Positions 6,308-63,480 of a stretch of DNA of 64,000 nt are shown piece by piece. Position 1 is the stretch's first letter. Each line of letters opens with the position of its first letter. The DNA is taken from the IMG/VR virus record IMGVR_UViG_3300026382_000002, positions 1 through 64,000 of that record. One strand, written 5' to 3'. The notes beneath the pieces were generated by a model. That model saw only the letters and a program-made list of their open reading frames with translations, ran no database searches and was not told the DNA's origin. Source of the DNA: a virus. The position numbers and the translations under genes are program-made.

Positions 6308-6313
6308 AATTTT

Positions 6314-6322
6314 TGTTATAAT
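6314..6322 (+). promoter_or_regulatory. Extended -10 promoter-like box (TGTTATAAT)
   Basis: TTTTTGTTATAAT sits 19 nt upstream of GTG 6342, with SD AAAAAAGG between. It lies back-to-back with the box at 6299-6307. Confidence 0.5.
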
Positions 6323-6341: not shown

Positions 6342-9300
6342 GTGCTACGAGAACCGTTTTTATATACAGACACTGTTTCCTTTTATAATAACAACTTACC
6401 GTTTGAAATCTTACATAGTAACAATATATTATTAGTTCAACTGTCTAATAACATAACAAACAATCTGTCTATAGAACAAGGTTTTTTGTTTGGTAAAAAC
6501 GTAGAAACAAATGGTATAAATGGTTTGTTTAATATAAACAAAACCCTGTTAGGGAACAACATAAATATTGAAAATTTTGACCATGCTATTTTAAAGCCTT
6601 TAAAAATATATAAAACACAGGCAGTCGATAATAATAAAAACACTCCTTTGACAACTGGCGAGATTATTTCATATATGGAGCAAAACGGGTATATAAGAAA
6701 ACAAATGGTAATCAATGATATATTTTATTTATCAAATGTACCAAATAGTAACTTATTAACTTTTGATTATGCAAATAAATATGGTTTTAAAAAAGGTATA
6801 GACATAACTCTTGATACTGTTAGTATTGTATTCAATTTAAAAGATAATACAGATAATTATTTGACACCTGTTAATTTTTTACTCTCTAATTATCTATCTA
6901 AAACTGGTATATATTCGTTAAATGTGAACGATGATAATATTGAGAGCGTTACATCATCTAGTAGCTCTATTGATAGAGTGAATTTTGATGGATATTTAAC
7001 ATCAGATGAGGATAATTTTGTAAGCAAAATTAATGAAGTAAAAACTAAAGCACCTAGCAAGAAAAATGTATCAAGCTTATTTATATCAAATCCTTCACTC
7101 AACTCACCTGTAAATAAAAAAGAATATCTGTCTAAAACAAAAGATTATATATCTATTACAGAAAAAACAGTTAACAATATAAAAATATTTAGAAATAAGG
7201 AAATAGAGGACAACGATGTTATAACTATAGATGAAGCTTCTGTTATAGCTAAAGAAATAATACAAAAAACAACTTCCTTATCTTTTAAGACTTTAGAAGA
7301 GTTTGAAAAATTTTATGAAAATATCTGTTCTTCAATCGAATATGTGAAAAAAGATTTAACAATTCCGTCAGACAAAGGATATGTTGCGTCTTACTACAAT
7401 CAAACTTCAACTGTTATAAACCATAAATCATTTAAAAGATTACTATCTCAAGAAGGAAAAGTGGACAACGTTTCTTATGCTGTGGATAAAAGTTCTAATT
7501 ATTTTAATTCTATCCTAAACACAAGCGATAGAGGTAAGTTTATTAAGATAGCCCAGTCAATAGGAGTGGAAATTGACTTTGTAAGGGATAAATTTGGTTC
7601 AATATTTAACAAACTATGTTCTTTAATTGTTACTCTATCATATCCGTCAGCAGAAGATTTAAAATTAATATCAGACATTGATTATGCTAAACCTATATAC
7701 GTTAATTCTTTTATTGTTATCAATCCAAACATACAATACATAATAAAAAATATGTCTACTTATGATTTTGTATATCCTGTATATGTTAGAATTGGGACAT
7801 ATTTTATAATTTCAAATCCTATAATTTCAAGAACAGTAAAATCAAATCTCTATTACAATTTTACAGTACCATTATATACGGATTTCGAAAATGATTTAAA
7901 TATACTTTCATATTCATTGTCTTATATGTCAAAAAATACACAAATGGTTCCATTTGTTCCGGCGAAATATATAAATACTTGTTTATTTGATGATTTGTTA
8001 TTTATACCAACAACAGAAGATGAAAAATTATGGGTTAAGACAAAGTGTGTTTCGTCAGCTGTAAATAAATATTCCATTTTGCATTCTAATAGAGCTATAA
8101 ACGGAACAGAGTTAAGTAAAATTTACAAATCTGTCTTATCTGGGATGGATAAAGAAATATACATGTGTAGAGATTGTCTTATATCAAAAGAATTTGCTGC
8201 TCTAATAGTGTCTTTTTATTTAATAAAACAAATAACAAACAAATACAGTATTCCAGTAAATATAGACTTGTCCAAAATTGTTAAAAAAATATATTCCAAT
8301 TATATAGCAACTGAAAGCAACAAAACTATCAGTGCAAACGATATATGCGGAATAACATCCACAAACCAAGGTGCTTTTATAGACAGTTTTATGTCTGTTA
8401 ATCCTATTGTTGTCTCAACAGCTAAAATTGATATAATAGATTGTCAAGATAGTGAGATAATCGAAAATGTTTCTGTTTCAATATCTGAATTTAAAATATC
8501 CGACAACAATATAGAAGAGATTGCTGATAAATTAGCTGATGATGTTTATAATTATTTTAATCAATTGAGTTTTAAAAATCTAAATGTAAATTTTGATATA
8601 TTAGATTGTAAAAATAATTGTCAAGAATGTAAGTCTCAGAAGTATATCTACACTGCATCTGAAGTGGTTAATGGAAAATTTGACTTAAGATACTCTTTTG
8701 ATGCGCTTTCAAAGCAAGCTATAGGAACTAGAAAAAATGATTACCCTTGTAACAATTCTATTGTCAATAATAAAATATCTTATTGGACATTTTTGTATAT
8801 AAAAGGAAAATACGGGGATAAGCCTACAAATTTAAAAGAACAGAAAAAGGGAATTAATTCTGATACGGTAGGGAAATTGTACTATATTGATGCTGATTTT
8901 ATAAACACAGAAACAAGTATTACACTAGATGAGCTGCAATTTTTCAATAAAAAAGAATATGGTTATATTGCTACTATAAAAGAGTTAGATAAATTTGTTT
9001 ATTATGACAGCGAAAGCGACATACTTTATTATACTCCAAATCTAACAATATCAGTTTCAAATGATTACCATGAAGATAAACCGTTTATAAAAATAAACAA
9101 TCTCAAAGTCTATACCAATACACTAAAACATACATCTTTATCTGTAATAGATACAAATGTGGATAGTTTTGATTTTGGTTTTATTTATGAGTTATTATAT
9201 GAGAAAGAATACACGTCTGATGTTGATGCATTAATAGGAAAAGGATTATCTGGAATGGTTTCATCTTCAAATCAAGAAACCCCAGTGTACAAAATACACA

Positions 9301-13131: not shown

Positions 13132-13350
13132 ATGTTAGTTTTAGTAAAAACAAAAGACGGTGTTGAAAAGGCTATTAATATTACAAATGCTGAATTTGAA
13201 GCTACAAGGAACAGTCAGGATGCCTCATTGCTTGATTTGAGAATTGTAAAGGAAAATGGACAAGTTACAGAAACGACAATAACTGAGGACTCGTATAGAA
13301 TGCTTATAGATGTTTTACAAAGAAACTCTAAAATGATTTCTTTATCTTAA
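13132..13350 (+). CDS. Small hypothetical protein (72 aa)
   Basis: ORF with SD AAAAGGA upstream. It is the last gene before hairpin 13367-13391. Confidence 0.5.
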   Translation: MLVLVKTKDGVEKAINITNAEFEATRNSQDASLLDLRIVKENGQVTETTITEDSYRMLIDVLQRNSKMISLS

Positions 13351-13366
13351 CTACCTTATCGGCATA

Positions 13367-13391: not shown

Positions 13392-13466
13392 GTTGCTTTA
13401 TACACTATCAAATTATCTGTATCATGTATAGGCCTTTAATTCTATCTGCTCGCATCTTTTGTTTTG

Positions 13467-13475
13467 TGGTATAAT
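13467..13475 (+). promoter_or_regulatory. Extended -10 promoter-like box (TGGTATAAT), consensus
   Basis: TTTTGTTTTGTGGTATAAT. The hexamer ends 22 nt upstream of ATG 13498, with SD AAAAAAGG between. Confidence 0.6.
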
Positions 13476-13497
13476 TTACACAAAAAAAAGGCTGCAA

Positions 13498-16400
13498 ATG
13501 TATCATAAAATAGATTCTAATCCAGAGGAACTAGATAATAAAATACTCAAAAATATGACAAAAGCAATAGCAGATAATTTCCCCATTAAAGGTAATTTTT
13601 ATACCTTAAAAGTAAGTAATCTTCATCCTGAAAGAGCAGACGTTTCCCTAAACGATATAAAAGATGCTATTTTGTCAGGTAAAAGTATATACAATACAAT
13701 AAAAGGAGATATGGAACTTGTAAGAAATTCTGATGGTAAAATTGTAGATAGAAAGTCCAATGTAGTGATAGCAAGAATTCCCAAATTTACAAAAAAAGAA
13801 ACTTTTATAGTTGATGGAAATTCCTACGTCGTTCCGAATCAGCAAAGATTAAAACCAGGAGCATATTTATTTCAAAGAAAAAATGGCGAGATTGTAACAA
13901 TATTTAATACTCAACAAAATAGACAATTTAAATTGTCTCTTGACCCATCTACAGGTATTTTTTATTTTAACATAGGAAGCAGTAAGGTTCCTGCTATAAG
14001 CATTCTTAACGCACTTGGTGTGTCCCATCAGGATTTAATTAAAACTATAGGTAATAAACTGTATACTGTAAACCAAAAAAAAGCGAATCCATCTGATTTA
14101 GATAAATTTATTAAAAAATCATATAAATTACCATCTGAGTTGCAGAACGCATCTAGCGAGGAAAAAATAAAATACATATTTGGGAATATGAAGGTTGACG
14201 ACGATGTAGTAAATAGAAATTTCGGGGTTAAAACAAACAAAATAGACACTAGATTAATATTGGCTTCTATGAAAAAATTATTAGATGCAAACAGGGGAGA
14301 GGAAGTTGAGCTAGACCAAAAAAACAATTTAGCCAACAAGAAAATATTAAACGCAATGCATCTAATGCCTGAATATTTTAATAAGAATTTCAAAAATGAA
14401 GCATTCAAGATTAAGTTAAAATTAAGTAAGCCAAATGTTACCAAAATTCAAGACGTTTTCACACCCTCCCATGTTACAGAAACTGCAAAACTATTCTTAA
14501 CAACATCTAAAATATCAAGAATGCCTGAAGAGTACAATCCTCTTCAAATTCATATGGCAAGTAAGCTATTAACACCTATGGGTGAAGGTGGTATTGAAAC
14601 AGATAGGGCATTAACTGAAGATGATAAGGCTATACATCCTTCACAATTAGGTTTTATAGACCCTATTGTATCCCCAGAGGGTGCAAAAACAGGTATTACA
14701 TTAGCGGTTACTGAAAACGCTTATATTTCCGATGATGGCGAGCCCGCAATAAAAGTTATCAATGTTAAAACTGGAAAAGATGAAATAGTTCCAGTTAAAG
14801 ACCTTTGGGATAAAAAAGTTGCATACCCAACCACTAATGAGAGAGCAAAAAAAGAAGGTGTTGGAGTAAGATATAAAAACAAAGAATACGTAACCAAGTC
14901 ATTAAAAGATGTTGACTATATGTTGCCTCATACTTCAGATATTCATAGCGCTTCAAGTAAGACATTGCCCCTAATTAACTCTATGGACGGTGTGAGAGCA
15001 ACAATGTCTCAAAAACATGGCCAACAAGCCCAATCGTTAAAACATAGGGAAGCACCTTTTGTTAGTACTGAGGACACTGATGGAAGAGATTTTTTTGAAA
15101 ATATTGCAGAAAAAACTACCCAAGTAATAAAAGCACACAGAAATGGTAAAGTTACTAAAATCACAGATGATGCTATTTATATTGATGGTGAAAAACACGA
15201 ACTTGTAAAAAACCTGCCTCTTTCAAGAAAAACATATATAGATATGGAACCAAAAGTAAAAGTGGGCGATATTGTAAAGAAAGGTCAAATTATTGCGGAA
15301 AGCAATTTTTCAAAAGACGGCGCACTTGCTACTGGAACTCATCTTAGGACCGCTTGGATGTCAATGCCAGGAAATAGAAATGACGCCGTAATAATATCTG
15401 AGAGCGCAGCCAAAAAATTAACATCATTACATATGTATAAAGAAGAAATACCTATAGAAAAAGATGATATTCTTGATATTAAAAAAGCTAAAGCACTGTT
15501 CCCGATGACGTTGAGCAAAGTTAATTTATCTAATTATGATTCTTATGGAGTAATAAAAAAAGGGGCTATTGTTAAACCTAAAGAGCCATTAGTTATAAAA
15601 CTTGTTCCTAACAACGAAAAGCCAATTACTTCTCTTGATAAAACGTTATTTAAACCGTTCAAGTTAAAACTTGAAACATGGGAGCATGCTCACGATGGTG
15701 AGGTGGTATCAGTCAAAAGAACCGGCAACACTGTTAGGATATTCGTAAAAACAGAAGCAGAGGCGCAAATAGGAGATAAAATATCAGGTAGGTATGGTAA
15801 CAAAGGTCTGATATCTAGGATATTGCCAGATGACAAGATGCCTAAAAACAAAAAAGGCGAACCTGTTCATGTTGTATTTACATCTGCTGGTGTAATCTCA
15901 AGAACTAACCCTGGACAATTAATAGAGGGAACATTAGGAAAAGTTTCAAGAAAAACGGGCAAAAAATATAAAATTACCCAATATGGAAATCCTGATAATT
16001 TATCATTTGCAGAAAATGAAGCAAAAAAACATGGAGTTGAACAATATGAGACATTGATAAACCCGGAAACAGGAAAGCCTTTTGATAAAAAAATATTTGT
16101 GGGAGAGCCTTACATACACAAATTGTTTAAAGATAGCGAGTCTGGGATGTCTGCAACTTCTACTGATAAAGTAAATATAAATGAACAACCTGGTAAAGGT
16201 GGAAAAACATCAGCGTCATCTTTTTCAAATATGGAGGTGAACGCATTATTAGCTCATAATGCAAAAGATTTCCTGAGAGAAGTCAGAACGATAAAAGGAC
16301 AAAAAAATGACGCTTGGTTTGAAGCGTTTAGAAAAGGTGAACCATTACCTAAGCCTGCTGAAAATTTTGCTTACGAGAAATTTAAAGCTTTACTATCTCA

Positions 16401-17820
16401 ATTGAACGTAGATGTTCATAGTGACCCAAAACAATTTAAAATTTTACCAACAACAGATAAGGAAGTAATATCTAAAGGCCGTAGAGAAGTAAAAACGCCT
16501 GAAACAATCAATGCAGCCGATGGAAAACCAAGAAAAGGGGGATTGTTTGACCCTAAAATTTTCGGTGAACTAGGAAACAGATATGGGCACATTAAATTAT
16601 CTGAACCAATAATAAACCCTATGTATTCGTATGAAACATCATTCTTGTTGGGAATTCCAGAAAAAAAACTACAAGAAGAGATGACTAAACCAAACGGTGT
16701 TTCCGATATAGTAAAAAAACTATCTACTATAGACATAAATAAAGAAATAAAAAAATTGAAAGATGAAAGCAAAAAAACTAAAAACCCTCAACTGAAAGAT
16801 AGGAATTTAAAAATAATTAAATTTCTTGAAAAATTAAGAGATAACAATCTTAAATTAAAAGATGTTGTTGTAACCAAAAACATAACAGTAATCCCCCCTA
16901 TATACAGACCTATAATAAAAGACCATACAGGAAAATATGGAGTGTCAGATATTAATATTCATTATCAGGAAATTATGAAAATCAACGATGCTTTAAAAGA
17001 AGCTAAAAAAGAAAAATTGGATACTCAAACAATAAATGCCCTGAAGGTCGATTTGCAGGATGCGATAGCGGCAATGTATGGGCTTAAAGAAAGTAAAAAT
17101 CCATTTATAAAAAATAAAAAAATTAAAGGGGTTCTTGATATAGTAGGCGGTAATAGACCAAAGGATTCATTTGTTCAGGAGAATCTATTAAGAAAAAATC
17201 AATTCATGTCGGGAAGGGCAGTTATTACTCCATCAAGAGGCGATTTAAAGCTCGATGAAATAGAAATACCTGAAGATATGGGGTTGAAGATTTACGAACC
17301 TCATATTAGCAGGGAGTTATCAAAATTAGGATATTCTCAATTGCAAATAAAAGAGATGATAAAAAATAAAGACCCTAAAGTTTTAGATGTTCTACACAAA
17401 TTAGGCAAACAAATACCTGTAGTATATAATAGGGCGCCATCATTGTGGAAACACAACTTGATTGGTGCTTATCCTAAATTTGTCCCTGGCCATAGTATAG
17501 CAATACCTCCTATGGTTGAAAGAGCGCACAACGCCGATTATGATGGCGACCAAATAGCAGTACATGTACCAGTAAGCCCAAAAGGTATTGAGGATGTGAA
17601 GAATAAAATAATGGCATCAAAACAATTGTTTACAGAGCAAGGGACTATTGTTCAAAAAGATTTACTAATGATTACTGACCAGGATGCTATTGTGGGAGTA
17701 TATAAAGCCTCAAGGCCTAGCAATAAAAAACCTGTAAAAGTTAGTAATATAAAAGAGCTTGAAAGATTGATTGCAGAGGGCAAAATTAATTATAATGATA
17801 AAGTTATAATAGGGACTTAA
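13498..17820 (+). CDS. Multisubunit RNA polymerase: beta fused to the N-terminal half of beta-prime
   Basis: Beta motifs: FIVDGNSYVV, GRYGNKGLISRILPDDKMP, and NMEVNALLAHNA. Then, with no linker, beta-prime motifs: VKTPETINAADGKPRKGGLFDPKIFG, NRAPSLWKHNL, and the catalytic NADYDGD (17530-17550). I prefer ATG 13498 over the track's TTG 13459. Confidence 0.85.
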   Translation: MYHKIDSNPEELDNKILKNMTKAIADNFPIKGNFYTLKVSNLHPERADVSLNDIKDAILSGKSIYNTIKGDMELVRNSDGKIVDRKSNVVIARIPKFTKKETFIVDGNSYVVPNQQRLKPGAYLFQRKNGEIVTIFNTQQNRQFKLSLDPSTGIFYFNIGSSKVPAISILNALGVSHQDLIKTIGNKLYTVNQKKANPSDLDKFIKKSYKLPSELQNASSEEKIKYIFGNMKVDDDVVNRNFGVKTNKIDTRLILASMKKLLDANRGEEVELDQKNNLANKKILNAMHLMPEYFNKNFKNEAFKIKLKLSKPNVTKIQDVFTPSHVTETAKLFLTTSKISRMPEEYNPLQIHMASKLLTPMGEGGIETDRALTEDDKAIHPSQLGFIDPIVSPEGAKTGITLAVTENAYISDDGEPAIKVINVKTGKDEIVPVKDLWDKKVAYPTTNERAKKEGVGVRYKNKEYVTKSLKDVDYMLPHTSDIHSASSKTLPLINSMDGVRATMSQKHGQQAQSLKHREAPFVSTEDTDGRDFFENIAEKTTQVIKAHRNGKVTKITDDAIYIDGEKHELVKNLPLSRKTYIDMEPKVKVGDIVKKGQIIAESNFSKDGALATGTHLRTAWMSMPGNRNDAVIISESAAKKLTSLHMYKEEIPIEKDDILDIKKAKALFPMTLSKVNLSNYDSYGVIKKGAIVKPKEPLVIKLVPNNEKPITSLDKTLFKPFKLKLETWEHAHDGEVVSVKRTGNTVRIFVKTEAEAQIGDKISGRYGNKGLISRILPDDKMPKNKKGEPVHVVFTSAGVISRTNPGQLIEGTLGKVSRKTGKKYKITQYGNPDNLSFAENEAKKHGVEQYETLINPETGKPFDKKIFVGEPYIHKLFKDSESGMSATSTDKVNINEQPGKGGKTSASSFSNMEVNALLAHNAKDFLREVRTIKGQKNDAWFEAFRKGEPLPKPAENFAYEKFKALLSQLNVDVHSDPKQFKILPTTDKEVISKGRREVKTPETINAADGKPRKGGLFDPKIFGELGNRYGHIKLSEPIINPMYSYETSFLLGIPEKKLQEEMTKPNGVSDIVKKLSTIDINKEIKKLKDESKKTKNPQLKDRNLKIIKFLEKLRDNNLKLKDVVVTKNITVIPPIYRPIIKDHTGKYGVSDINIHYQEIMKINDALKEAKKEKLDTQTINALKVDLQDAIAAMYGLKESKNPFIKNKKIKGVLDIVGGNRPKDSFVQENLLRKNQFMSGRAVITPSRGDLKLDEIEIPEDMGLKIYEPHISRELSKLGYSQLQIKEMIKNKDPKVLDVLHKLGKQIPVVYNRAPSLWKHNLIGAYPKFVPGHSIAIPPMVERAHNADYDGDQIAVHVPVSPKGIEDVKNKIMASKQLFTEQGTIVQKDLLMITDQDAIVGVYKASRPSNKKPVKVSNIKELERLIAEGKINYNDKVIIGT

Positions 17821-17835
17821 TCTTTAGCCCCTATT
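17808..17835. terminator. Hairpin spanning the overlapping convergent stops of the RNAP and endolysin genes
   Basis: AATAGGG (17808-17814) pairs with CCCTATT (17829-17835). There is no T-run on either strand. Confidence 0.25.
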
Positions 17836-18425
17836 GCAAAATTTAACCTATTAAACCATCCTGCAAACAATTCGTTCGTTGGCCTATTTTCCATAGACTC
17901 TTTAAATTTGCAAAATTCAATTCCATTAAGCACATTTAACAATCTTCTTTTGTTTACAAGATTTACAGCTTGTATAGTTTTTTTTCCAACTATACCATCA
18001 ATAATTAAGTCAGGAAAAAGTCTGCCGTTTCTGTTTAGCAGATTTAATGCCTCCTGTAGATTTTTGCCTGCAGTCTGCCATGTTCCCAATATTACAGACT
18101 GCTCTAACAATTCTTCCGCTACATCATAAGGCAAATCATCGCCCTTGAATCTATTCCAATATTTTTGGTAATAAAATTCTTTTACCAATGTTTGCAATTC
18201 ATCGATATTGGCTAGTTTTTCGTTTAAAGCTCTTTTTTGATTCTTATCTTGTGGATTAAAATCATACGGTTTTGCATCATCTATGATTTTCCAACCAATC
18301 CAATCATTATTATATTTTCTACTTATCCCTTTATAAGTTTCTCCGCCCACGTCATTAGAATTGTTTGAGTAACCGCCTTCGTGTCCAATTAAATTATCAT
18401 AAGCATTTAAGAAAGCCCTTGTCAT
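17817..18425 (-). CDS. Endolysin, GH108-type lysozyme with a C-terminal peptidoglycan-binding region
   Basis: LIGHEGGYSNNSNDVGGETYKGIS matches the GH108 signature (EGGY...DxGGxTxxGI). 202 aa. Confidence 0.8.
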   Translation of the reverse strand: MTRAFLNAYDNLIGHEGGYSNNSNDVGGETYKGISRKYNNDWIGWKIIDDAKPYDFNPQDKNQKRALNEKLANIDELQTLVKEFYYQKYWNRFKGDDLPYDVAEELLEQSVILGTWQTAGKNLQEALNLLNRNGRLFPDLIIDGIVGKKTIQAVNLVNKRRLLNVLNGIEFCKFKESMENRPTNELFAGWFNRLNFAIGAKD

Positions 18426-18446
18426 TTTAAATCCTTTTTTATTGTA

Positions 18447-18457
18447 ATTTTACCTCA
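18447..18457 (-). promoter_or_regulatory. -10-like box (TGAGGTAAAAT) for the endolysin gene
   Basis: The reverse complement reads TTTTTGAGGTAAAATTACAAT. It lies upstream of SD AAAAAAGGA and ATG 18425. Confidence 0.35.
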
Positions 18458-18517
18458 AAAACAAGCTATTTAAAAATACACTAATTTACGCATATTTTGT
18501 AATAGCGTTTTTTTTTA

Positions 18518-18525
18518 TGTAAAAT
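18518..18525 (+). promoter_or_regulatory. -10-like box (TGTAAAAT) for the holin-to-kinase operon
   Basis: TTTTTTTTTATGTAAAAT lies 30 nt upstream of ATG 18556. It diverges from the endolysin promoter candidate. Confidence 0.3.
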
Positions 18526-18555
18526 GTTGTTAAATACTTAAAAAAGGACTGAATT

Positions 18556-18963
18556 ATGGGGCTTATTAATTTTTCTCTAGGGGATATAGGAAGCGTGTTT
18601 AAAGATATTAGAGAAGCTATTACTGGAGAGGCTATTAAAGACCCGAACAAGCAAGCTGAGATTTTAATGAAACTTCAACAGATAGAGCTTGAATATACAA
18701 AAATGAAGGCAAATATAGTTGAAGCTGAGGCAAAGTCTGACCATTGGCTTACAAGCTCTTGGAGGCCTATTACAATGTTAGTGTTTGTTTTTATTATTTT
18801 TAATAACTATGTATTAGTGCCTTATGCGCAAGCGTTTGGAGCTAATATACCAACTTTAAACCTAACACAACAAATGTGGGAACTATTAAAAATAGGAATA
18901 GGCGGGTACATAGTAGGAAGAAGTGCCGAGAAAGTAGCTAAAAGCTTAAAAGAAAAATTGTAA
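18556..18963 (+). CDS. Holin candidate (3-TM, GTA-type holin family)
   Basis: An N-terminal amphipathic/coiled region precedes AEAKSDHWLTSSWRPITMLVFVFIIF, as in the 3-TM holin family. It is adjacent to and divergent from the endolysin. Confidence 0.6.
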   Translation: MGLINFSLGDIGSVFKDIREAITGEAIKDPNKQAEILMKLQQIELEYTKMKANIVEAEAKSDHWLTSSWRPITMLVFVFIIFNNYVLVPYAQAFGANIPTLNLTQQMWELLKIGIGGYIVGRSAEKVAKSLKEKL

Positions 18964-18994
18964 CAAATACATCAAGCTTTTAAAGGATGATACT

Positions 18995-19465
18995 ATGACT
19001 TGTGAAGAAATTAAAAAAGAAATAGAAAGCTTTAAAAAAGATTTAATAAAACAAATTAATGATAGTGACCTGGATATGCAAGAAATGCTAAAAGGGATTA
19101 TAAAAGTATCATCTAAGTATCCGGAACAAAAAGAGCTTATAGAATTTATCGTTATATTGAATGATACTTTAACAAGAGACTCTAAAAATATAAGGAACAA
19201 TATTATAGAAATGATAGATGCTTGTTTTGGATATAAAATAAAAATATTAGAGAAGATAGATGCTGTTAATAAAAAAACAAACAACCCCTCAACGTTTAGA
19301 ACAAAAATGAGAACTGCTGTTTTGAGTGTTAGAAATTTAATCTTGAGCAAACTTGTAATACCGTTAGTTATTGTTGTCATTATTTTTGTTTTATATATCC
19401 TATTTCCAGATAGTACAGAGCATTTTTTTAAAGACATATTTCCGCAATTATCAAAAATATTCTAA
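18995..19465 (+). CDS. C-terminally anchored membrane protein in the lysis cassette (function unknown)
   Basis: 156 aa with a helical, charged N-terminal domain and a single C-terminal TM (LVIPLVIVVIIFVLYILF). SD AAAGGA is present. Confidence 0.45.
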   Translation: MTCEEIKKEIESFKKDLIKQINDSDLDMQEMLKGIIKVSSKYPEQKELIEFIVILNDTLTRDSKNIRNNIIEMIDACFGYKIKILEKIDAVNKKTNNPSTFRTKMRTAVLSVRNLILSKLVIPLVIVVIIFVLYILFPDSTEHFFKDIFPQLSKIF

Positions 19466-19474
19466 GGAGAATAA

Positions 19475-20134
19475 ATGGGAGTTTTTTCGTTTTTTAAAAA
19501 TGATAAAAAAGATAAATCATATAGTAACAACATTAAAGATGTTGCTATGCAGGAATGTAATTTCTACGAAAAAAAAATTAGCGATTTAGGAATTAATGGT
19601 ATTGTTGAGCTCTTACCTCAAAATGCGATAACTCATTTAAAGGAAGTTGAAAGTCAATTATTGAAAATGGACCCAAACAAAAAAAATTTACTTATAATTG
19701 ATGACAATTTGGGATTGATTTCTTTAATTAATGACATTCTGGAAATGTCCAGGTTAGACAAAGATATTAACAGTATATGCATACAAACATCATATGCCGG
19801 TTTTATATATAAAATAATTACGGAAAAATATAATTTAAAAATAGATTATGCAATAATAGATATTACATTTGGAGGAATTATAGTTGATACGCACGATGGA
19901 AACATTAAATATGAAGGGGTTATGGTTTTTAAAGATTTAATTAACAAAAATAAAGAATTGAAATATTTATTCTATACAGGTAATAGTTTAAATAAATATG
20001 TATATTCTTCTAAAAAAATAATAGATATTTTTCAACAAATAACAAATGATGATATTATGAATCACGTTGTATACAAAAACCAATATCCACCATCAAAACT
20101 AATAAATATCGTAAAAAGTTTAATAAAAGGATAA
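19475..20134 (+). CDS. Response-regulator receiver-domain protein without a recognisable output domain
   Basis: NLLIIDDN (acidic pair D76/D77), DYAIIDITFGG (candidate phospho-acceptor D129), and LFYTGNS (conserved T). Strong SD TAAGGAG. It sits immediately upstream of the kinase. Confidence 0.6.
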   Translation: MGVFSFFKNDKKDKSYSNNIKDVAMQECNFYEKKISDLGINGIVELLPQNAITHLKEVESQLLKMDPNKKNLLIIDDNLGLISLINDILEMSRLDKDINSICIQTSYAGFIYKIITEKYNLKIDYAIIDITFGGIIVDTHDGNIKYEGVMVFKDLINKNKELKYLFYTGNSLNKYVYSSKKIIDIFQQITNDDIMNHVVYKNQYPPSKLINIVKSLIKG

Positions 20135-20136
20135 TA

Positions 20137-21243
20137 ATGTGGGGTATGATTGCAAAAGACGCATTTTGGAAAGTGTTTATTTCTTTTGTTATTGTATGTT
20201 TTACAATAATTGGACTCGGATATCTAGACTGTTTTGAGAATGATAGCAAATGCTCTATAGAATGCGTTTTTAAATATGATTGGGTTCATTTGACTGCAAA
20301 ATACTATATGTTTATTGTGCTGGTGTTTGTTGTATCTTTTATAATCAATGTAATAATAGATTATGTTGAATATAAAAAATCAGCAATGTTACATATGTTG
20401 AACTTTAACTCTATGTCCACAAATAAAACGCTTGTACATATAACAGAAAATATATCACACGAATTGTCTACACCATTAGAAGTTATATCTTTTAAAATGT
20501 TTAAAATAAGAAAAATTATTAACACTATTATAAATGATGAATTTTCTATATGGATGAAAGAAAACTGCACACAAACTAATTCTTGTACTAAAGAAGAGAA
20601 ATGTTTACTTTCAGATTCTAATATAGAGATTCTTAAACAACATTTTCTAAAATCAAAAAATAAAAAAAAATATATTGATGAACTATTAAAAATAGATAAT
20701 GAGTTTAAATACGTTGATGCCTCAATAGAGCAAATTGGCAATATTTTACAGAAAATGAAAGGTTTTAAATCTATAAAATATTCCAATGGTAATAAAACTT
20801 TATATGACATAATTGAAACTTCATTTCAGGTCATGGCTATATCTCATAAAGACTTTAAATGGGGGATAGATGAAAAATTCAAGAAATACAGACTGTGTCA
20901 TAAAAAATGTCTTCATAATGGAGATTTATTAAACATTATGATAAACCACATTAAAAATTCTATAGAAGCTAATGCTACTACTATATCAGCACATTTTATT
21001 AGATATACAAATGGCTTTCTATATCTTTACATTAAAGATAATGGTTCAGGTATTCCAAGACAATTTATAAACACAGTATTCTCACCTAATATAAGCAGCA
21101 AATCTAAAATGCTTGATATTAGAGGAAATGGGATGTTTATAAACAGGGAAATAATACGAAGCACTGGAGGGGATATAAGAATAGTTGAAACCTCTAAAAG
21201 AGGAACTGTTTTTGAGCTAAAAATAAGAGCAGAAAAAATCTAA
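20137..21243 (+). CDS. Membrane sensor histidine kinase
   Basis: Two N-terminal TM helices. H-box ISHELSTPL (His108 at 20458-20460), N-box LLNIMINHIKNSIEA, G1 IKDNGSGIP, F-box FINTVFSP, and G2 RGNGMFI. Confidence 0.85.
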   Translation: MWGMIAKDAFWKVFISFVIVCFTIIGLGYLDCFENDSKCSIECVFKYDWVHLTAKYYMFIVLVFVVSFIINVIIDYVEYKKSAMLHMLNFNSMSTNKTLVHITENISHELSTPLEVISFKMFKIRKIINTIINDEFSIWMKENCTQTNSCTKEEKCLLSDSNIEILKQHFLKSKNKKKYIDELLKIDNEFKYVDASIEQIGNILQKMKGFKSIKYSNGNKTLYDIIETSFQVMAISHKDFKWGIDEKFKKYRLCHKKCLHNGDLLNIMINHIKNSIEANATTISAHFIRYTNGFLYLYIKDNGSGIPRQFINTVFSPNISSKSKMLDIRGNGMFINREIIRSTGGDIRIVETSKRGTVFELKIRAEKI

Positions 21244-21298
21244 CCTAAAAAAACATTTATTAATATGAGCAGTTTAACGTCTTGCTCAGGACGATACA

Positions 21299-21442
21299 CT
21301 ATACCCTAAAAACGCTTATAGCGCTAATAGGGATGGCAGTTGAGACAACAGTGCTAACCCATTTTGCCGCCGCCCTCCTGGCGGCGTCTGCACTTTTGAA
21401 TTTTTCGGCAGATATATATCTGCCTATTTTGAATTTATACAT
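21299..21442 (-). CDS. Candidate small membrane peptide (47 aa) inside a GC-rich, hairpin-dense island
   Basis: SD AAGGAG lies 6 nt upstream of ATG 21442. The product is MYKFKIGRYISAEKFKSADAARRAAAKWVSTVVSTAIPISAISVFRV, with a hydrophobic C-terminus. The region could instead be a structured RNA. Confidence 0.35.
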   Translation of the reverse strand: MYKFKIGRYISAEKFKSADAARRAAAKWVSTVVSTAIPISAISVFRV

Positions 21443-21553
21443 TTTAAACTCCTTGATTAATTTTTTCTTCATATTTATATAACACATTTTTTTAATTTTT
21501 TTCGCAAAAATATTTCCGTCATTTTGTATCTTTTGGTTTTTAAATAATTTGAG

Positions 21554-21566
21554 GATATAATATAAT
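21554..21566 (+). promoter_or_regulatory. -10-like boxes (GATATAATATAAT)
   Basis: TTTGAGGATATAATATAAT lies about 40 nt upstream of ATG 21606. Confidence 0.35.
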
Positions 21567-21605
21567 GCCGAATGGCAAAAATCAAAAAAAACGAAAGGAT
21601 TAGTT

Positions 21606-22601
21606 ATGGCATTAAACGTAACAACCCAAAATTTGCAAACATTACTACAACAATTAGCACAATCCCAGGGTAAGGCTATACACGATTATATACAAGCTCA
21701 GGGGTTTGCTTCACAGGTAGAGCTAGAAACTAAGATTGCAGATGTATTATCTAAAATTGACGCAATAACTAAGATAGATGACAGTGACAACGTAGAGTCT
21801 CTTGCTGAAAAAATTCAAGCGATTCAAGATGTTTTAAATAGTGAAGAGGGTGTTGTTCAAGAAATTCTTGATAGGTTAACAACTAATGAACAAGCAATAT
21901 CTGATTTAAACGACAAAGTTGATAATAATTATTCTTTAATTTCTCAAGCATTATCAACTCTTAAAACATCAGTAGATAAAAATACTGCTGATATTTCTGA
22001 CGTAAAAACAAGCATTACTAATATTGAAAAGGATATTGAAGAAAAAGTATCAGGATTAGACCAAAGAATCGCTTCAAACGAACAAGCGATTGAAACTCTT
22101 AACGGAGATGCGTCTGTAGAAGGTTCTGTTGATTACAAAGTTGCTCAAGAAGCTGCAAGAGCTAAAGCTGCAGAAACAGGGTTGACTCAATCTATTGAAA
22201 CAGCTAAGTCTGAAGCTGTAAGTGAAGCGGTAAGCCAAGCTAACGCTTATACTGACCAAAAAGTTCAAGATGCTATAGATAATCTTGACGTTGCTTCTGA
22301 TAAAGACTTTCAAGCTATTGAAGAAAGAGTAACCAAAGTCGAGAATGTTTTAAATGACACAACCAATGAAAACGGTGAGCTTGAAAAGGGACTTGTAACT
22401 AAAGTAAGTGACCTTGAAACTGGTCTTGTTAATGAAAAAGCTGCTAGAGAGGCTGGAGACACAGCAACTCTTGAGGCAGCTAAAGCGTATACAGATAGTA
22501 CAGTAGTTCAAGCTGATAAAATAGACATTGACGTAATTGTTAATGTATTTATTGATGCTCTTAATGGGAATTCTTCAAGTGACAATGGGGATGCTCTATA
22601 A
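21606..22601 (+). CDS. Coiled-coil fibre-like protein
   Basis: 331 aa with heptad-like repeats throughout. Repeated A(N/K)AYTD motifs (SQANAYTDQKV, AAKAYTDSTV) are typical of phage fibre or whisker proteins. Confidence 0.5.
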   Translation: MALNVTTQNLQTLLQQLAQSQGKAIHDYIQAQGFASQVELETKIADVLSKIDAITKIDDSDNVESLAEKIQAIQDVLNSEEGVVQEILDRLTTNEQAISDLNDKVDNNYSLISQALSTLKTSVDKNTADISDVKTSITNIEKDIEEKVSGLDQRIASNEQAIETLNGDASVEGSVDYKVAQEAARAKAAETGLTQSIETAKSEAVSEAVSQANAYTDQKVQDAIDNLDVASDKDFQAIEERVTKVENVLNDTTNENGELEKGLVTKVSDLETGLVNEKAAREAGDTATLEAAKAYTDSTVVQADKIDIDVIVNVFIDALNGNSSSDNGDAL

Positions 22602-39259: not shown

Positions 39260-39267
39260 ATTATACA
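39260..39267 (-). promoter_or_regulatory. -10 promoter-like box (TGTATAAT)
   Basis: The reverse complement reads TTTTTTGTATAAT. It lies 32 nt upstream of ATG 39227. Confidence 0.4.
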
Positions 39268-39289
39268 AAAAATAGTTACTTTTGTTAAG

Positions 39290-43124: not shown

Positions 43125-43133
43125 ATTATACTA
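43125..43133 (-). promoter_or_regulatory. -10 promoter-like box (TAGTATAAT)
   Basis: The reverse complement reads TTTTTTTTAGTATAAT. It lies 20 nt upstream of ATG 43104, with SD AAAAAAAGG between. Confidence 0.4.
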
Positions 43134-43147
43134 AAAAAAAGAAAAGA

Positions 43148-44905
43148 TTATAGTCGATGGGCTGTGTGTTTTTCTCTTCCTGAAACTATTTCATCTGTTT
43201 TAAACCCTTTTCCTCTTTTAACTTCATCGGTAATAGCTTTTTGTAAATATCTATAATTCAATTTAGCAAATAAATTTCTATTAAAGTTTGGTCTCATTAC
43301 AAGAGTCTTGTACACAGGTTTTACGGGTGGTTTTTGGTCAGTTATATATACAAATCTCACACCATGTAGTTTAAGCATATTTAATATATAATCATCAATC
43401 AGTGTACCCTTTAGAAAGACATCTACGTTTTCAGCAAGATACTTACCAACAATATCAGGACCAACTATTACTTTCTTTTTATAACTAGGATAATTTTTTA
43501 GTGCGGCGTTTATATCATACAGTTCGCCTTCATCATCTTTTGCTAACGATAAGTGTCCTCTTGCAATTACTTCAAAATGTTTTTTATTTAAATCTTTGCC
43601 GGTACTGTTTAAAAATGTCTGGTGTAAAAGGTCAGCTTCCTGTTTTCTGGCGGCTCCTATACCTTGATGTTCCAATTTATCTTTAACTGACACTATTCCA
43701 GTGGACAGCTCTTGCCCTTTGTAAACAAAATCGCCCTGTTTAACTTTTAATTTTTTATCTTCCTGAACATATACTTTTGTCTTGTCAGAGTTAATATATA
43801 CAAAATGTCCTCCCTGCGGAGCATTATCTATTCTTATAACTCTACCAGAAACAGGAGCTACTGCCGCTTTTTGTTTAAAATTGCTAGGGCTATTTACCAC
43901 TATTTTAAAACCTTCCATTCCTTGAAGTTTATCAGCTTCTTCGTCTTTTGCACCAACTGAGTGTTTTGTTGAAAGTACCATTTGTGTTAATGGCTCACCA
44001 ATACTTTGCGCTGCTTCTATACCCACTTCTTCTCCTATAGCAGGCAACCGTCCATTTGATTTTAACCCATAACACATTGCACATATACCTCTAGAGGCTT
44101 CGCAAGTTATAGGGCTTCTAACTCTTACACATTTAACTTTTTTGTTTTTTAATTCCTTCCAATATTTTTCGTCTATCAACCTATTTGTACCAGCCTCATA
44201 TCTCCCTACGATGTGATGGTCCATTGGCGACATACAAATTCCATTTTTAGTTCCACAATCATGCTTTGTAATAACTTGATTATCAGTATTTGCTACAAGC
44301 ACTTTTCCAAACTCGCCAGGCTCAGATGTAGCATTAGCGGTTTGAACTGCAGAGAACCTACCCTGAGATGCAACCGCAAAATATTCTTGAGTATTGAGAC
44401 CTTTTATAAAATTATTTTTTATCATTATAGGTTTAGGAGTCTGGTCCATGCCCACAGCATAAAAAGGCGCCCAACTCATTCTAGCTAACTGAGCCGGTTT
44501 TCCTCTAGCGGAAGACTTAATTTGTGTTAACATTTCATTATTATCATCATTCATATTGCTGACGTTTTTTTGAGCCTCGTTAAATGCTTTCATTAATATT
44601 TTCTTCTTTTGAGTATCAGTTTTGGCTTTTTTGAATTCTCTTTCTATTTTTTTTATATGCTTCTCTACCTCTTTTTCATTTATTCTTAAATCTTTAGTTC
44701 CAACATTAGCCCCAAGATAATAGGCCATTTTTTCAGCTAAAGCTGTTATTTTGTGTATTCTTTCCTTATATAGTTCTGGATATTTTTCAGCAAACTTTTT
44801 AAGTTTGTTTGTATATGTTTTTTTATCTATAGGTTTATCAGGTTCAAATTGTATATCCTTAGGCATTAAACTGTTTAATAATATTACTCCGGCTGTTGCT
44901 GTCAT
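43148..44905 (-). CDS. RNA polymerase beta-prime, C-terminal half
   Basis: TATAGVILLNSLMPKD and LGANVGTKDL align with E. coli beta-prime around residue 560 onward. The bridge helix reads SARGKPAQLARMSWAP...GLNTQEYFAVASQGR, and the trigger loop region reads AAQSIGEPLTQMVLSTKHSVGA. Confidence 0.85.
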   Translation of the reverse strand: MTATAGVILLNSLMPKDIQFEPDKPIDKKTYTNKLKKFAEKYPELYKERIHKITALAEKMAYYLGANVGTKDLRINEKEVEKHIKKIEREFKKAKTDTQKKKILMKAFNEAQKNVSNMNDDNNEMLTQIKSSARGKPAQLARMSWAPFYAVGMDQTPKPIMIKNNFIKGLNTQEYFAVASQGRFSAVQTANATSEPGEFGKVLVANTDNQVITKHDCGTKNGICMSPMDHHIVGRYEAGTNRLIDEKYWKELKNKKVKCVRVRSPITCEASRGICAMCYGLKSNGRLPAIGEEVGIEAAQSIGEPLTQMVLSTKHSVGAKDEEADKLQGMEGFKIVVNSPSNFKQKAAVAPVSGRVIRIDNAPQGGHFVYINSDKTKVYVQEDKKLKVKQGDFVYKGQELSTGIVSVKDKLEHQGIGAARKQEADLLHQTFLNSTGKDLNKKHFEVIARGHLSLAKDDEGELYDINAALKNYPSYKKKVIVGPDIVGKYLAENVDVFLKGTLIDDYILNMLKLHGVRFVYITDQKPPVKPVYKTLVMRPNFNRNLFAKLNYRYLQKAITDEVKRGKGFKTDEIVSGREKHTAHRL

Positions 44906-61848: not shown

Positions 61849-63480
61849 TCAATAGAAAGCAACTATACCTTTGTAGATTTTGAATGCGTTATAAGCAAAA
61901 ACAGATGCATGAAGAAAGTCGTCAGGATGGACTCCCCTCATCCATATTCTATATCCATTTTTAGTTACGTGTTCGTGTTCGGACAGCAAATGTAATATAG
62001 GTTCTCTCATTTCTTTCGGATTAGGGAATATAAATCTTCCACCCTTATTAGCTTCATCTTTTTTTCCTGGCTTTAGTGCTTTAAAAAAATCATCTATTGC
62101 TGTAGTTTTATCCAAATATGCAGTCCAACCGTCAGCGCTTCTTTTTATAGCTCTGTCAAACTTTCCATATCTAAATGGTTGCACTATTTCAGGACCAAAC
62201 GCATCCGCTAGATAAGAGTTATTTAGCGCCCCCTCACCAGCATCCGCTCCTATTTTATCAACCCCAAATAAAGCCAATGTTCTTTTTATTTCCCTGATAG
62301 TGACCATATAATCTTGTTGAGGGAATATTTTATAGTACAGTAACTGAAGTCTACCACCATCTCTATATTTATACTCACCCGCTAACTCTCCATAAATAGC
62401 TAAGACTGTTCTTGAGTTATAATCGATACCTCCTCCTGACCAGTCAATTCCTGCAACGATAGTTTTAAACGTTTTTTTAAGATAACCCTTGTTGGGATTA
62501 TTAATCACATGTAACCCCGGCCTACAACATGCAAGAATATCATCTTCCGTTATAAATCTAGCGCCTTTGGAAAAAGAAATACCTAATACCTCATTATTGA
62601 ATTTCGCTTCATCATATTCTTCATATTTTTGAAGAAGGTCATTCCATTTGTTTTCAAAACCATAATGAAGCTTTAAAGCCGGTTGCGGAACCCTCACTCC
62701 AACGTAAAAAGCTTTTTCCAAATCTGGAGAAGTAGGAACAATGGTATAATGTTCCATATCCAACATTCCGCCACATTTGGTGCAAATAGGCCCCTTTTTC
62801 CCTATATTTTTATATCCTATATCATTCCAAGCTCCACAGCTTCCACACTTAAAAAATATTTCATGTTGTGTTGAGCGTTGCCACATAATTTCGATTGGAT
62901 TATCCACTGTTTTAGGTGTTCCAGCAAATAACTTCCGTGGTTTAAGCGAGGCCGATAAAATTTCTAATGCAACAGGTATTTCATTTGGGTCCATATCCTG
63001 AATTTCGTCTAACATTAGATTGTCAGCAGAATAACCCCTGGTTCTATCAGCGTTGTCTTTCATATATGAGATTGTAACACCACTACCATTAGCAAAGTTT
63101 TTATCAAATAAGCTATCCTTCACATCATAGCTATGCTTATTTAATAAATACTTTCTTGCGATTGGAGAACGTGCTAAAAATTCATTCAACTTAACCCTTG
63201 CAAATTCCCTTGCTTGTCTTTCAGAAGTAGTGGCATAAAACGTTCTTCTGTTTGCTTCAAGCATACTGTCAGTAACAACTGTTGCAGCAAGCATTGTGGA
63301 TTTACCAACCTGTCTGGCTGTTTTTAATAATAAATTTGTTCTATCCCAATTATATATATGCTTAAAAGGTGCGTGCAATTTAAAATTAAATCTCTGTCCT
63401 TTAAGCATCAATACCGCTTGAGCATAATCAGAACGTTTAACTATTTTTTTAGAATAAGTAAGAGGGGGAGAGAAAGACAT
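61849..63480 (-). CDS. terL: Terminase large subunit
   Basis: Walker A LLKTARQVGKST, Walker B NLMLDEIQD, and nuclease-domain start VAGIDWSGGG. A CxxC-x17-CxxC insertion is present (KCGSCG...CTKCGG). Confidence 0.85.
   Translation of the reverse strand: MSFSPPLTYSKKIVKRSDYAQAVLMLKGQRFNFKLHAPFKHIYNWDRTNLLLKTARQVGKSTMLAATVVTDSMLEANRRTFYATTSERQAREFARVKLNEFLARSPIARKYLLNKHSYDVKDSLFDKNFANGSGVTISYMKDNADRTRGYSADNLMLDEIQDMDPNEIPVALEILSASLKPRKLFAGTPKTVDNPIEIMWQRSTQHEIFFKCGSCGAWNDIGYKNIGKKGPICTKCGGMLDMEHYTIVPTSPDLEKAFYVGVRVPQPALKLHYGFENKWNDLLQKYEEYDEAKFNNEVLGISFSKGARFITEDDILACCRPGLHVINNPNKGYLKKTFKTIVAGIDWSGGGIDYNSRTVLAIYGELAGEYKYRDGGRLQLLYYKIFPQQDYMVTIREIKRTLALFGVDKIGADAGEGALNNSYLADAFGPEIVQPFRYGKFDRAIKRSADGWTAYLDKTTAIDDFFKALKPGKKDEANKGGRFIFPNPKEMREPILHLLSEHEHVTKNGYRIWMRGVHPDDFLHASVFAYNAFKIYKGIVAFY

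Follow-up and report, generated by a model that had tools for sequence, protein, structure and literature searches.

Arbitrium, VqmA-Phi and captured agr genes exemplify the sensing devices described so far in phages, which are either one-component receptors or parts borrowed from the host; among kinases there is an intramembrane-sensing type that works with accessory membrane proteins, as in LiaFSR and BceS-BceAB. In the Clostridioides difficile phage phiCDHM1 the agr3 locus encodes AgrB, AgrD and AgrC, has a clear host origin and explicitly contains no response regulator (PMC3901668). A survey of jumbo phages describes cREC as the only receiver type; it is linked to enzymes of NAD/ADP-ribose and is reported never to accompany a histidine kinase (Iyer et al. 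2021, PMC7824862). Here we analyse a stretch of 64,000 nucleotides (nt) of phage DNA, positions 1-64,000 of the IMG/VR record IMGVR_UViG_3300026382_000002 (hereafter the window), which encodes on its + strand a candidate stand-alone receiver of 219 amino acids (aa; 19475..20134) and a predicted membrane histidine kinase of 368 aa (20137..21243). We consider it quite probable that they form a functional phosphotransfer two-component system belonging to the phage lineage, and one instance of a conserved three-gene module whose first member is a 156-aa tail-anchored inner-membrane protein (18995..19465, + strand). A two-component system is in itself a known kind; what is new is its setting and architecture, which is phage-lineage-specific, made of three genes and equipped with a divergent receiver. 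The literature that we searched held no account of a conserved phage kinase-receiver module, and since its coverage was incomplete this is absence of evidence.

The locus has much in common with HisKA systems that use stand-alone receivers (CheY, Spo0F, DivK, CpdR): a membrane kinase with an HExxTP H-box and N, G1, F and G2 boxes, a single-domain receiver with the DD, D, T and K residues, adjacent genes and a presumed protein-protein output. It differs from them in that it is encoded by a phage lineage and its family was not found in the scanned cellular genomes, in a receiver too divergent for the Response_reg model, which carries an N-terminal hairpin (a four-Cys motif in relatives) and a beta-hairpin after beta3, and in a kinase with an insertion in the DHp loop, an invariant linker and an obligatory tail-anchored neighbour. 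With phiCDHM1 it shares a phage-encoded membrane sensor kinase and a GC content lower than that of the rest of the phage (PMC3901668); however, the module has no signal-synthesis gene, does have a receiver, and belongs to a phage-specific family. The receiver resembles cREC as a divergent receiver-fold protein of large phages, but it always adjoins a kinase and falls outside the cREC definition. The best matches of the receiver model in BFVD were the hybrid histidine kinases of EsV-1, FirrV, Hokovirus and Marseillevirus, brown-algal or giant viruses which also encode two-component domains; theirs, however, are of eukaryotic type, with fused receivers and eukaryotic hosts, whereas here the proteins are separate, of bacterial type and encoded by a tailed phage. 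A few metagenomic phage proteins are automatically annotated as response regulators.

Judged from its sequence and model, the open reading frame (ORF) 20137-21243 is a HisKA-type histidine kinase with two transmembrane (TM) helices. It matches Pfam HATPase_c with E=1.5e-10 and 41.9 bits, above the cut-off of 26.4. Its conservation was followed in an alignment of 32 homologs and a hidden Markov model alignment of 120. H108 and E109 are kept in 114 of 114 sequences, T112 in 106 and P113 in 110 of the same 114, N274 in all 120, D301, G303 and G305 as well as G330 and G332 in 118 of 118, and F315 in 116 of 118; E104, N270, A278 (N box), K322, G356 and T357 are also essentially invariant. The H-box reads ISHELSTPL, the family form being HELxTP. 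The H, N, G1, F and G2 boxes that a first-pass annotation of this DNA had picked out by eye are thereby confirmed at the same residues, with catalytic positions, both in the H-box and for ATP binding, essentially invariant across 114-120 homologs. The linker between the DHp and CA domains, YSNGNK (215-220), is invariant and specific to this kinase family.

The AlphaFold2 model built from the homolog alignment (predicted local distance difference test, pLDDT, 84) consists of a TM hairpin, a DHp hairpin bearing H108 and a CA domain. A hydropathy scan placed TM1 at ~7-34 and TM2 at ~50-80, with an external loop of ~20 aa between them, and TM2 continues straight into the long DHp helix 1 with H108 (helix 57-146 in the model). 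The insertion in the DHp loop (147-177) is partly disordered, at 147-159 in the model, and is followed by DHp helix 2 (178-214) and an alpha/beta CA domain (222-368). All of the 50 best Foldseek matches of this model in the PDB are histidine kinases, aligned over 220-300 columns that cover DHp and CA; among them are YF1/FixL, HK853, WalK, ZraS, CpxA and BceS. Compared with PDB sequences, the family profile found SrrB (4.8e-16) and also FixL, ZraS, HK853, WalK and BceS. The kinase would autophosphorylate on H108 in an ATP-dependent manner. In HisKA kinases the HExxT motif goes with phosphatase activity, and its conservation here suggests that the kinase probably also acts as a phosphatase toward the receiver.

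The sensor part of the kinase is reduced. The sequence of its ~20-aa loop differs even between the five nearest homologs, and ~107 residues precede the His in the window's clade, as opposed to 160-200 in most family members, which carry between the TM helices a ~95-aa periplasmic segment with a conserved Cys pair. On this comparison of sequences, the window's clade has lost the periplasmic sensor domain and its sensor is truncated to a TM hairpin, and by the length of its loop the window kinase may be of the intramembrane-sensing type. As in LiaFSR and BceS-BceAB, two TM helices are joined by a loop too short for a ligand and a co-encoded membrane protein could supply the input; here, however, the accessory protein is small, tail-anchored and provided with a cytoplasmic domain, is unrelated to LiaF or to ABC transporters, and most of the family outside the window's clade retains the periplasmic domain. 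Sensing of a cue from the envelope or from outside the cell, as had been proposed, is therefore less well founded for this phage than for its relatives, because so little of the sensor is left.

The ORF 19475-20134 probably encodes a true, phosphorylatable stand-alone receiver of a divergent sub-family, as its predicted fold and motifs suggest. A profile of 17 close homologs found no significant receiver among PDB sequences, where receivers appeared only at E=1.6-3.5, and a comparison of folds was therefore needed. The AlphaFold2 model (pLDDT 87, pTM 0.83) shows a helical hairpin (14-63) in the N-terminal part and then a (beta-alpha)5 domain (~68-219), in which D76 and D77 stand at the end of beta1, D129 at that of beta3, T168 at that of beta4 and K201 at that of beta5; an extra beta-hairpin (135-145) follows beta3. 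In the Foldseek search of the PDB, ranks 1-38 are all receivers of response regulators, with probability 1.0, and the TM-score to the target is 0.56-0.74 for entries that are isolated receiver domains; Spo0F, CheY, DrrB, RcsB, PhoP and NtrX are among the matches. Structure prediction thus agrees for both proteins, the models matching only kinases (top 50) or only receivers (top 38).

The alignment of the receiver family shows the motifs LLIIDDN, AIIDITxGG and FYTGN and an invariant Lys. Counting, at each position, only those of the 162 family members that have a residue there, the active-site quintet is kept in 97-99%: D76 and D77 each in 156 of 158, D129 in 157 of 159, T/S168 in 156 of 157 and K201 in 141 of 145. 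The acidic pair, the phospho-Asp and the YTGNS motif named by the first-pass annotation are accordingly real and kept in at least 97% of these members, and K201, the fifth active-site residue, is an addition to them. It was also right that the protein lacks a DNA-binding or other output domain; besides the receiver domain there is only the N-terminal hairpin. D129 would be phosphorylated by the cognate kinase.

The N-terminus of the receiver family begins with a conserved basic-hydrophobic peptide, of consensus ~M-x-I-F-x-x-I-K-x-I-F-K-K (window 19475-19520, alignment columns 1-25), which might serve as an amphipathic anchor in the membrane or as a tag recognised by a protease. Ahead of the receiver domain many relatives carry a CxxC...C...C motif (e.g. 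L005 7353-7997 and L008 5728-6486, the L-numbers denoting loci that carry the module), and in the window's clade the helical hairpin stands in its place.

The third member of the module, encoded immediately ahead of the receiver, is the 156-aa protein. It consists of a cytoplasmic helical N-terminal domain and one TM segment at the C-terminus (~107-144), and it has no family in Pfam, PHROG, NCBIfam or PADLOC; PADLOC returned nothing for any of the three module proteins. A word-index search gave only three close relatives, and distant ones were recognised by position and with phmmer in the fetched loci. Gene maps were drawn with phmmer and all-against-all BLAST for L001, L003, L005, L006, L008-L015 and L017, on contigs of 2-286 kb whose kinases are 33-54% identical to that of the window. 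Receiver and kinase follow each other in the same order and on the same strand in L001, L003, L005, L006, L008-L010, L012-L015 and L017, and homologs or positional equivalents of the tail-anchored protein, of ~152-172 aa and with a single C-terminal TM in most loci, stand directly upstream of the receiver in L001, L003, L005, L006, L008-L014 and L017. The order tail-anchored protein, receiver, kinase is kept in at least 12 independent loci, wherever the contig extends far enough. The conserved unit is therefore this three-gene module, without the holin, and the 156-aa protein, earlier regarded as a neighbour on the lysis side, is its third conserved member. The kinase and the receiver, which have no paralogs elsewhere in the window, are by this pattern of inheritance a cognate pair, always passed on together with the tail-anchored protein. 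That a complete and intact pair is carried by a phage, as had been noted from the sequence, is borne out by the terminase, holin and endolysin of the window and by related contigs in IMG/VR.

We also considered whether the tail-anchored protein is an Hpt-like phosphotransfer protein or an i-spanin; both were rejected, as it has no conserved His and its topology is wrong, with a C-terminal TM and the N-terminus inside. In L008, a 194-kb relative, two extra genes lie between receiver and kinase (6513-7470), a 101-aa ORF on the minus strand and a gene whose 198-aa product carries a signal peptide and, at its C-terminus, a TM segment.

The module most likely belongs to the phage lineage and is not recent host cargo, to judge from its distribution in databases. 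When 1.84 billion representative proteins were searched exhaustively with a profile, 268 receiver clusters at 50% identity were found, all of ~190-270 aa, and by this measure the family is compact and distinct, with no doorway into the millions of ordinary regulators. These clusters, together with at least 121 kinase clusters at 90% identity, are found on contigs of up to 286 kb whose genes mostly have no Pfam matches; the gene context was looked at in about a dozen of these loci, and eight receiver loci come from IMG/VR. When 185,579 bacterial and archaeal species genomes, one for each species, were scanned with three family-specific peptide patterns, there were three matches only, on contigs of 1.4, 2.0 and 5.8 kb in metagenome-assembled genomes (MAGs) of unrelated phyla, and these look like binning contaminants. 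A recent host fragment with host-like flanks, which the first-pass annotation had named as the outcome that would speak against a phage system, is thus not what was found. Among GenBank phages, tblastn with the kinase gave just two weak and unrelated matches, in faecal contigs, and with the receiver none, and there was no DNA near-identical to positions 17000-22000 of the window; as far as these searches reach, no cultured phage has the module.

According to the reading that we favour, the kinase would dimerise in the inner membrane, autophosphorylate on H108 and pass the phosphoryl group to D129 of the receiver, which it would probably also dephosphorylate, because the HExxT motif is retained. 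As the sensor retains only its two TM helices, joined by a short loop without conservation, the input would arise in the membrane or be delivered by another protein; intramembrane-sensing kinases suggest, by analogy, the conserved tail-anchored protein as the foremost candidate. The output may be a phosphorylation-dependent protein-protein interaction, since the receiver has no DNA-binding or effector domain. The three genes would be read from the late-type promoter of the holin, so that the system would act in the infected cell at about the time when lysis proteins are made. Viruses with the module thus probably sense something during infection. If this is true, a kinase-receiver pair that is kept with a third membrane protein over hundreds of sequence clusters, and was not found in cellular genomes, would show that phosphorelays evolve on their own within phages and that large phages gather information while they infect. 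H108, D129 and the tail-anchored partner offer testable handles. The divergent receiver sub-family also reveals a gap in the coverage of the standard Response_reg model.

Several observations weigh against this interpretation. The search for known profiles gave a divided answer: the kinase has HATPase_c above threshold, but its match to Pfam HisKA is only E=0.11, over the H-box (residues 103-118), and the receiver has no match in Pfam, Response_reg (PF00072) included, nor in PHROG or NCBIfam. Response_reg is matched by more of the receiver relatives than any other Pfam family, but weakly (3 of 17, best E=0.013). Because these Pfam models stay below threshold, membership rests on fold and motifs. 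Moreover, an unusual 19-residue insertion between beta3 and alpha3 of the receiver adjoins the phospho-Asp, and the tail-anchored protein shows in its alignment neither a recognisable domain nor an invariant catalytic-looking residue, which makes its role guesswork. The promoter motif and terminator described below are pattern matches only, and a sigma-70 scan was overall not enriched over shuffles. The GTDB scan used exact degenerate peptide patterns, which divergent cellular relatives may escape. Finally, the module genes have a GC content of 0.24-0.27, 5-8 points lower than the mean of the window genes (0.316, standard deviation 0.038); no genes of the neighbourhood are richer in AT, and among 55 genes the receiver has the lowest GC (23.8%). 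Such an offset might reflect a history of their own within phage genomes.

The first-pass annotation had placed the pair inside a lysis cassette, and the ORFs and orientations that it gave for the endolysin, the holin and the 156-, 219- and 368-aa proteins are all correct. The holin (18556..18963, + strand; three TM segments, Pfam GTA_holin_3TM 3.2e-14, holin phrog_3427 1.4e-28) is the first gene of the apparent operon and is followed on the same strand by the three module genes, with gaps of 31, 9 and 2 nt and with ribosome sites (AGGA/AGGAG) ahead of the 156- and 219-aa genes. The four genes diverge from that of the endolysin (17817..18425, - strand; Pfam Glyco_hydro_108, or GH108, 5e-18 and PG_binding_3 9e-7; phrog_315 endolysin), which is context outside the conserved module. 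A promoter-like element, a T-run followed by TGTAAAAT (18508..18525, + strand), lies 31 nt ahead of the holin start. The + strand has no other such motif between 18426 and 21243, and there is none from the holin start to the kinase stop; at the equivalent position L001, the nearest relative, has TTTTTTTGATATAAT. The motif (at least 5 T, 1-5 nt, TAnAAT) is found 20-34 nt upstream of eight gene starts of the window, including those of the holin and, on the opposite strand, the endolysin; its recurrent sites are 6310-6322, 18447-18461 (-), 18508-18525, 39260-39272 (-), 43125-43140 (-), 51033-47, 51046-58 (-) and 53445-62 (-). It is followed by an AAAAAGG ribosome site, and 10 of its 23 matches fall in the small intergenic fraction just before genes.

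Downstream of the kinase, a terminator scan found a terminator-like hairpin, GGCAGATATATATCTGCC followed by TATTTTGAAT (21407..21424, + strand), which likely marks the end of the holin-to-kinase transcription unit; there is a second GC-rich hairpin at ~21365-21390, and the next promoter-like site (21539-21566) stands ahead of the gene at 21606. On these signals the holin, the tail-anchored protein, the receiver and the kinase probably form one late transcript. The suggestion that the pair shares an apparent transcription unit with the holin thus finds support in one upstream promoter-like motif, none internal and a terminator-like hairpin after the kinase. The spacer that holds the hairpins (21244-21605) has 362 nt as opposed to 86 nt in L001, and includes a stretch of 50% GC (21290-21400) with two hairpins. 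It also contains a minus-strand ORF (21299-21487) of 62 aa, or of 47 aa from an ATG preceded by AAGGAG, with a hydrophobic C-terminus.

This arrangement is the ground for the earlier idea that the module controls the timing of lysis, the kinase sensing the state of the envelope or membrane or a superinfection, and the phosphorylated receiver, perhaps through the tail-anchored protein, delaying or triggering the holin. The module lies directly 3' of the holin both in the window and in its 76-kb relative, the gaps being short and promoter-like motifs absent from the interior; the kinase, with its two TM helices, and the tail-anchored protein would reside in the same membrane as the holin, and in a distant locus (L005) a GH108 endolysin gene is found 2.4 kb downstream of the module. 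T4 lysis inhibition works through the RI/RIII antiholins. Like it, the module could couple an envelope signal to the holin, and it is placed beside lysis genes in the window phage; but there is no relation in sequence or architecture, phosphotransfer would replace antiholin binding, and relatives do not keep the link to the holin. Holin, endolysin and RNA polymerase (RNAP) genes are neighbours of the module only in the window and in its nearest relative, of 76 kb (L001/L007). In ten other, independent loci the module is kept and no homolog of the window's holin or endolysin is detectable within 6 kb, a comparison in which non-homologous lysis genes would be missed. The location in a lysis cassette is therefore not general, and the synteny of holin, receiver and kinase that had been proposed for checking is not conserved there; the association with lysis genes is confined to one lineage and may be due to chance. 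For this phage a link to lysis is possible, given the apparent operon; as an account of the module we regard lysis timing as rather unlikely.

In other loci the neighbourhood points elsewhere. A phage-encoded ClpX gene lies divergently and directly upstream of the module in 5 of about 12 loci (L003 3791-4954, L009 4125-5300, L010 4190-5368, L012 4095-5246 and L013 4012-5250, all on the - strand), and the encoded proteins have the N-terminal zinc-finger cysteines and match the NCBIfam equivalog NF003745 with 396 bits against a cut-off of 359. In Caulobacter CpdR, a single-domain response regulator, binds the ClpX N-domain only when unphosphorylated (PMC8973945). By this precedent, and given the conserved basic-hydrophobic peptide at its N-terminus, the receiver could be a phosphorylation-gated adaptor or regulator of ClpX(P), through which the kinase switches the degradation of phage or host proteins. 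However, neither the 64-kb window nor the 21 kb around its nearest relative contains a ClpX homolog, seven related loci have no ClpX nearby, divergent adjacency is weak evidence, and the only likeness to CpdR seen is the receiver fold. We hold regulated proteolysis to be unlikely.

It is improbable that the module hijacks host signalling, with the kinase acting on host response regulators or the receiver serving as a phosphate sink for a host kinase, so that envelope or stress responses are reprogrammed. There is a precedent for a lone kinase in AgrC of phiCDHM1, which has no phage response regulator and presumably talks to host regulators (PMC3901668), and a receiver without an output domain would suit such a role. 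However, kinase and receiver are always co-inherited and the family was not found in the scanned cellular genomes, which argues for a closed cognate pair and not for the mimic of a host partner.

That these are recently captured host two-component genes without a phage role (a moron), or a degenerate pair of pseudo-kinase and pseudo-receiver, is very improbable and largely refuted: the low GC of the module and the failure of the Pfam Response_reg and HisKA models would agree with it, but the family is deep (down to 25% identity), occurs on virus-like contigs and in only three tiny MAG contigs among all the genomes scanned, the catalytic residues of both proteins are nearly invariant, and the GC offset recurs in most related loci (including L001 8812-11020), so that it is a property of the module and no sign of recent import.

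Many relatives have a larger form of the module. Two more genes stand downstream of the kinase in seven loci and encode a small secreted protein and a barrel-like protein (among them L003 7401-8902, L005 9234-10705, L006 9360-10876, L009 7983-9529, L013 7799-9339 and L014 7833-9185). The first has 77-98 aa, a signal peptide and a conserved KGWIR(I/L/V)(F/L)NS; the second has ~400 aa, a signal peptide and a C-terminal aromatic-x-Phe (Y/F-x-F), and its copy in L006 matches DUF3373 with 8.8e-11. From these features the larger protein looks like an outer-membrane barrel and the smaller one like a periplasmic protein, both attached to the signalling module. The pair is absent from both short-sensor loci examined, and the 64 kb of the window hold no homolog of the small secreted protein or of the barrel-like protein. 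A wider picture can be drawn from this, which we put forward as a speculation with little chance of holding in full. Large, probably virulent phages of an uncultured lineage would possess their own vertically inherited sensory pathway, whose full form would span the envelope, with the barrel, the secreted protein, a kinase with a periplasmic domain, the receiver and a tail-anchored effector or scaffold. It would respond during infection to a cue from the envelope or from outside the cell, such as superinfection, lysis of neighbouring cells or a secreted signal made by the phage, and could adjust a late decision, for example lysis timing or ClpX-dependent proteolysis; the window phage would carry a stripped-down version wired into the holin operon.

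The rest of the window is consistent with a large phage, as its proteins recur on a 161-kb contig. The large terminase is encoded at 61849-63480 (phrog_675, 3e-51). The RNAP is of the multisubunit type, with split and fused genes. A fused RNAP gene of 1453 aa (13459-17820, + strand) joins the C-terminal part of beta (Rpb2_6) to the N-terminal part of beta-prime (Rpb1_1, Rpb1_2, NADYDGD), and a separate RNAP gene of 585 aa (43148-44905, - strand) carries Rpb1_5. Through the fused gene the closest cultured phages are Salmonella phage Arash and the Vibrio phages D181, D148 and D69 (29% identity); Arash has no module genes beside its RNAP gene. Rfam and tRNA scans of the window were empty, and searches with the genes at the window ends gave other contigs and nothing new of relevance. 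The fused RNAP gene sits in the late/structural block, 3' of a 607-aa gene, and in Arash the RNAP homolog (29% identity over 99%) is directly preceded by a portal gene. In the window gene the annotated TTG (13459) probably lies ahead of the true start; an ATG at ~13498 agrees with the length of the relative. The 342-nt gap ahead of the fused RNAP gene contains an unlisted small ORF (13133-13351, + strand) of ~73 aa, which matches by position a 73-aa gene of L001 (3246-3467).

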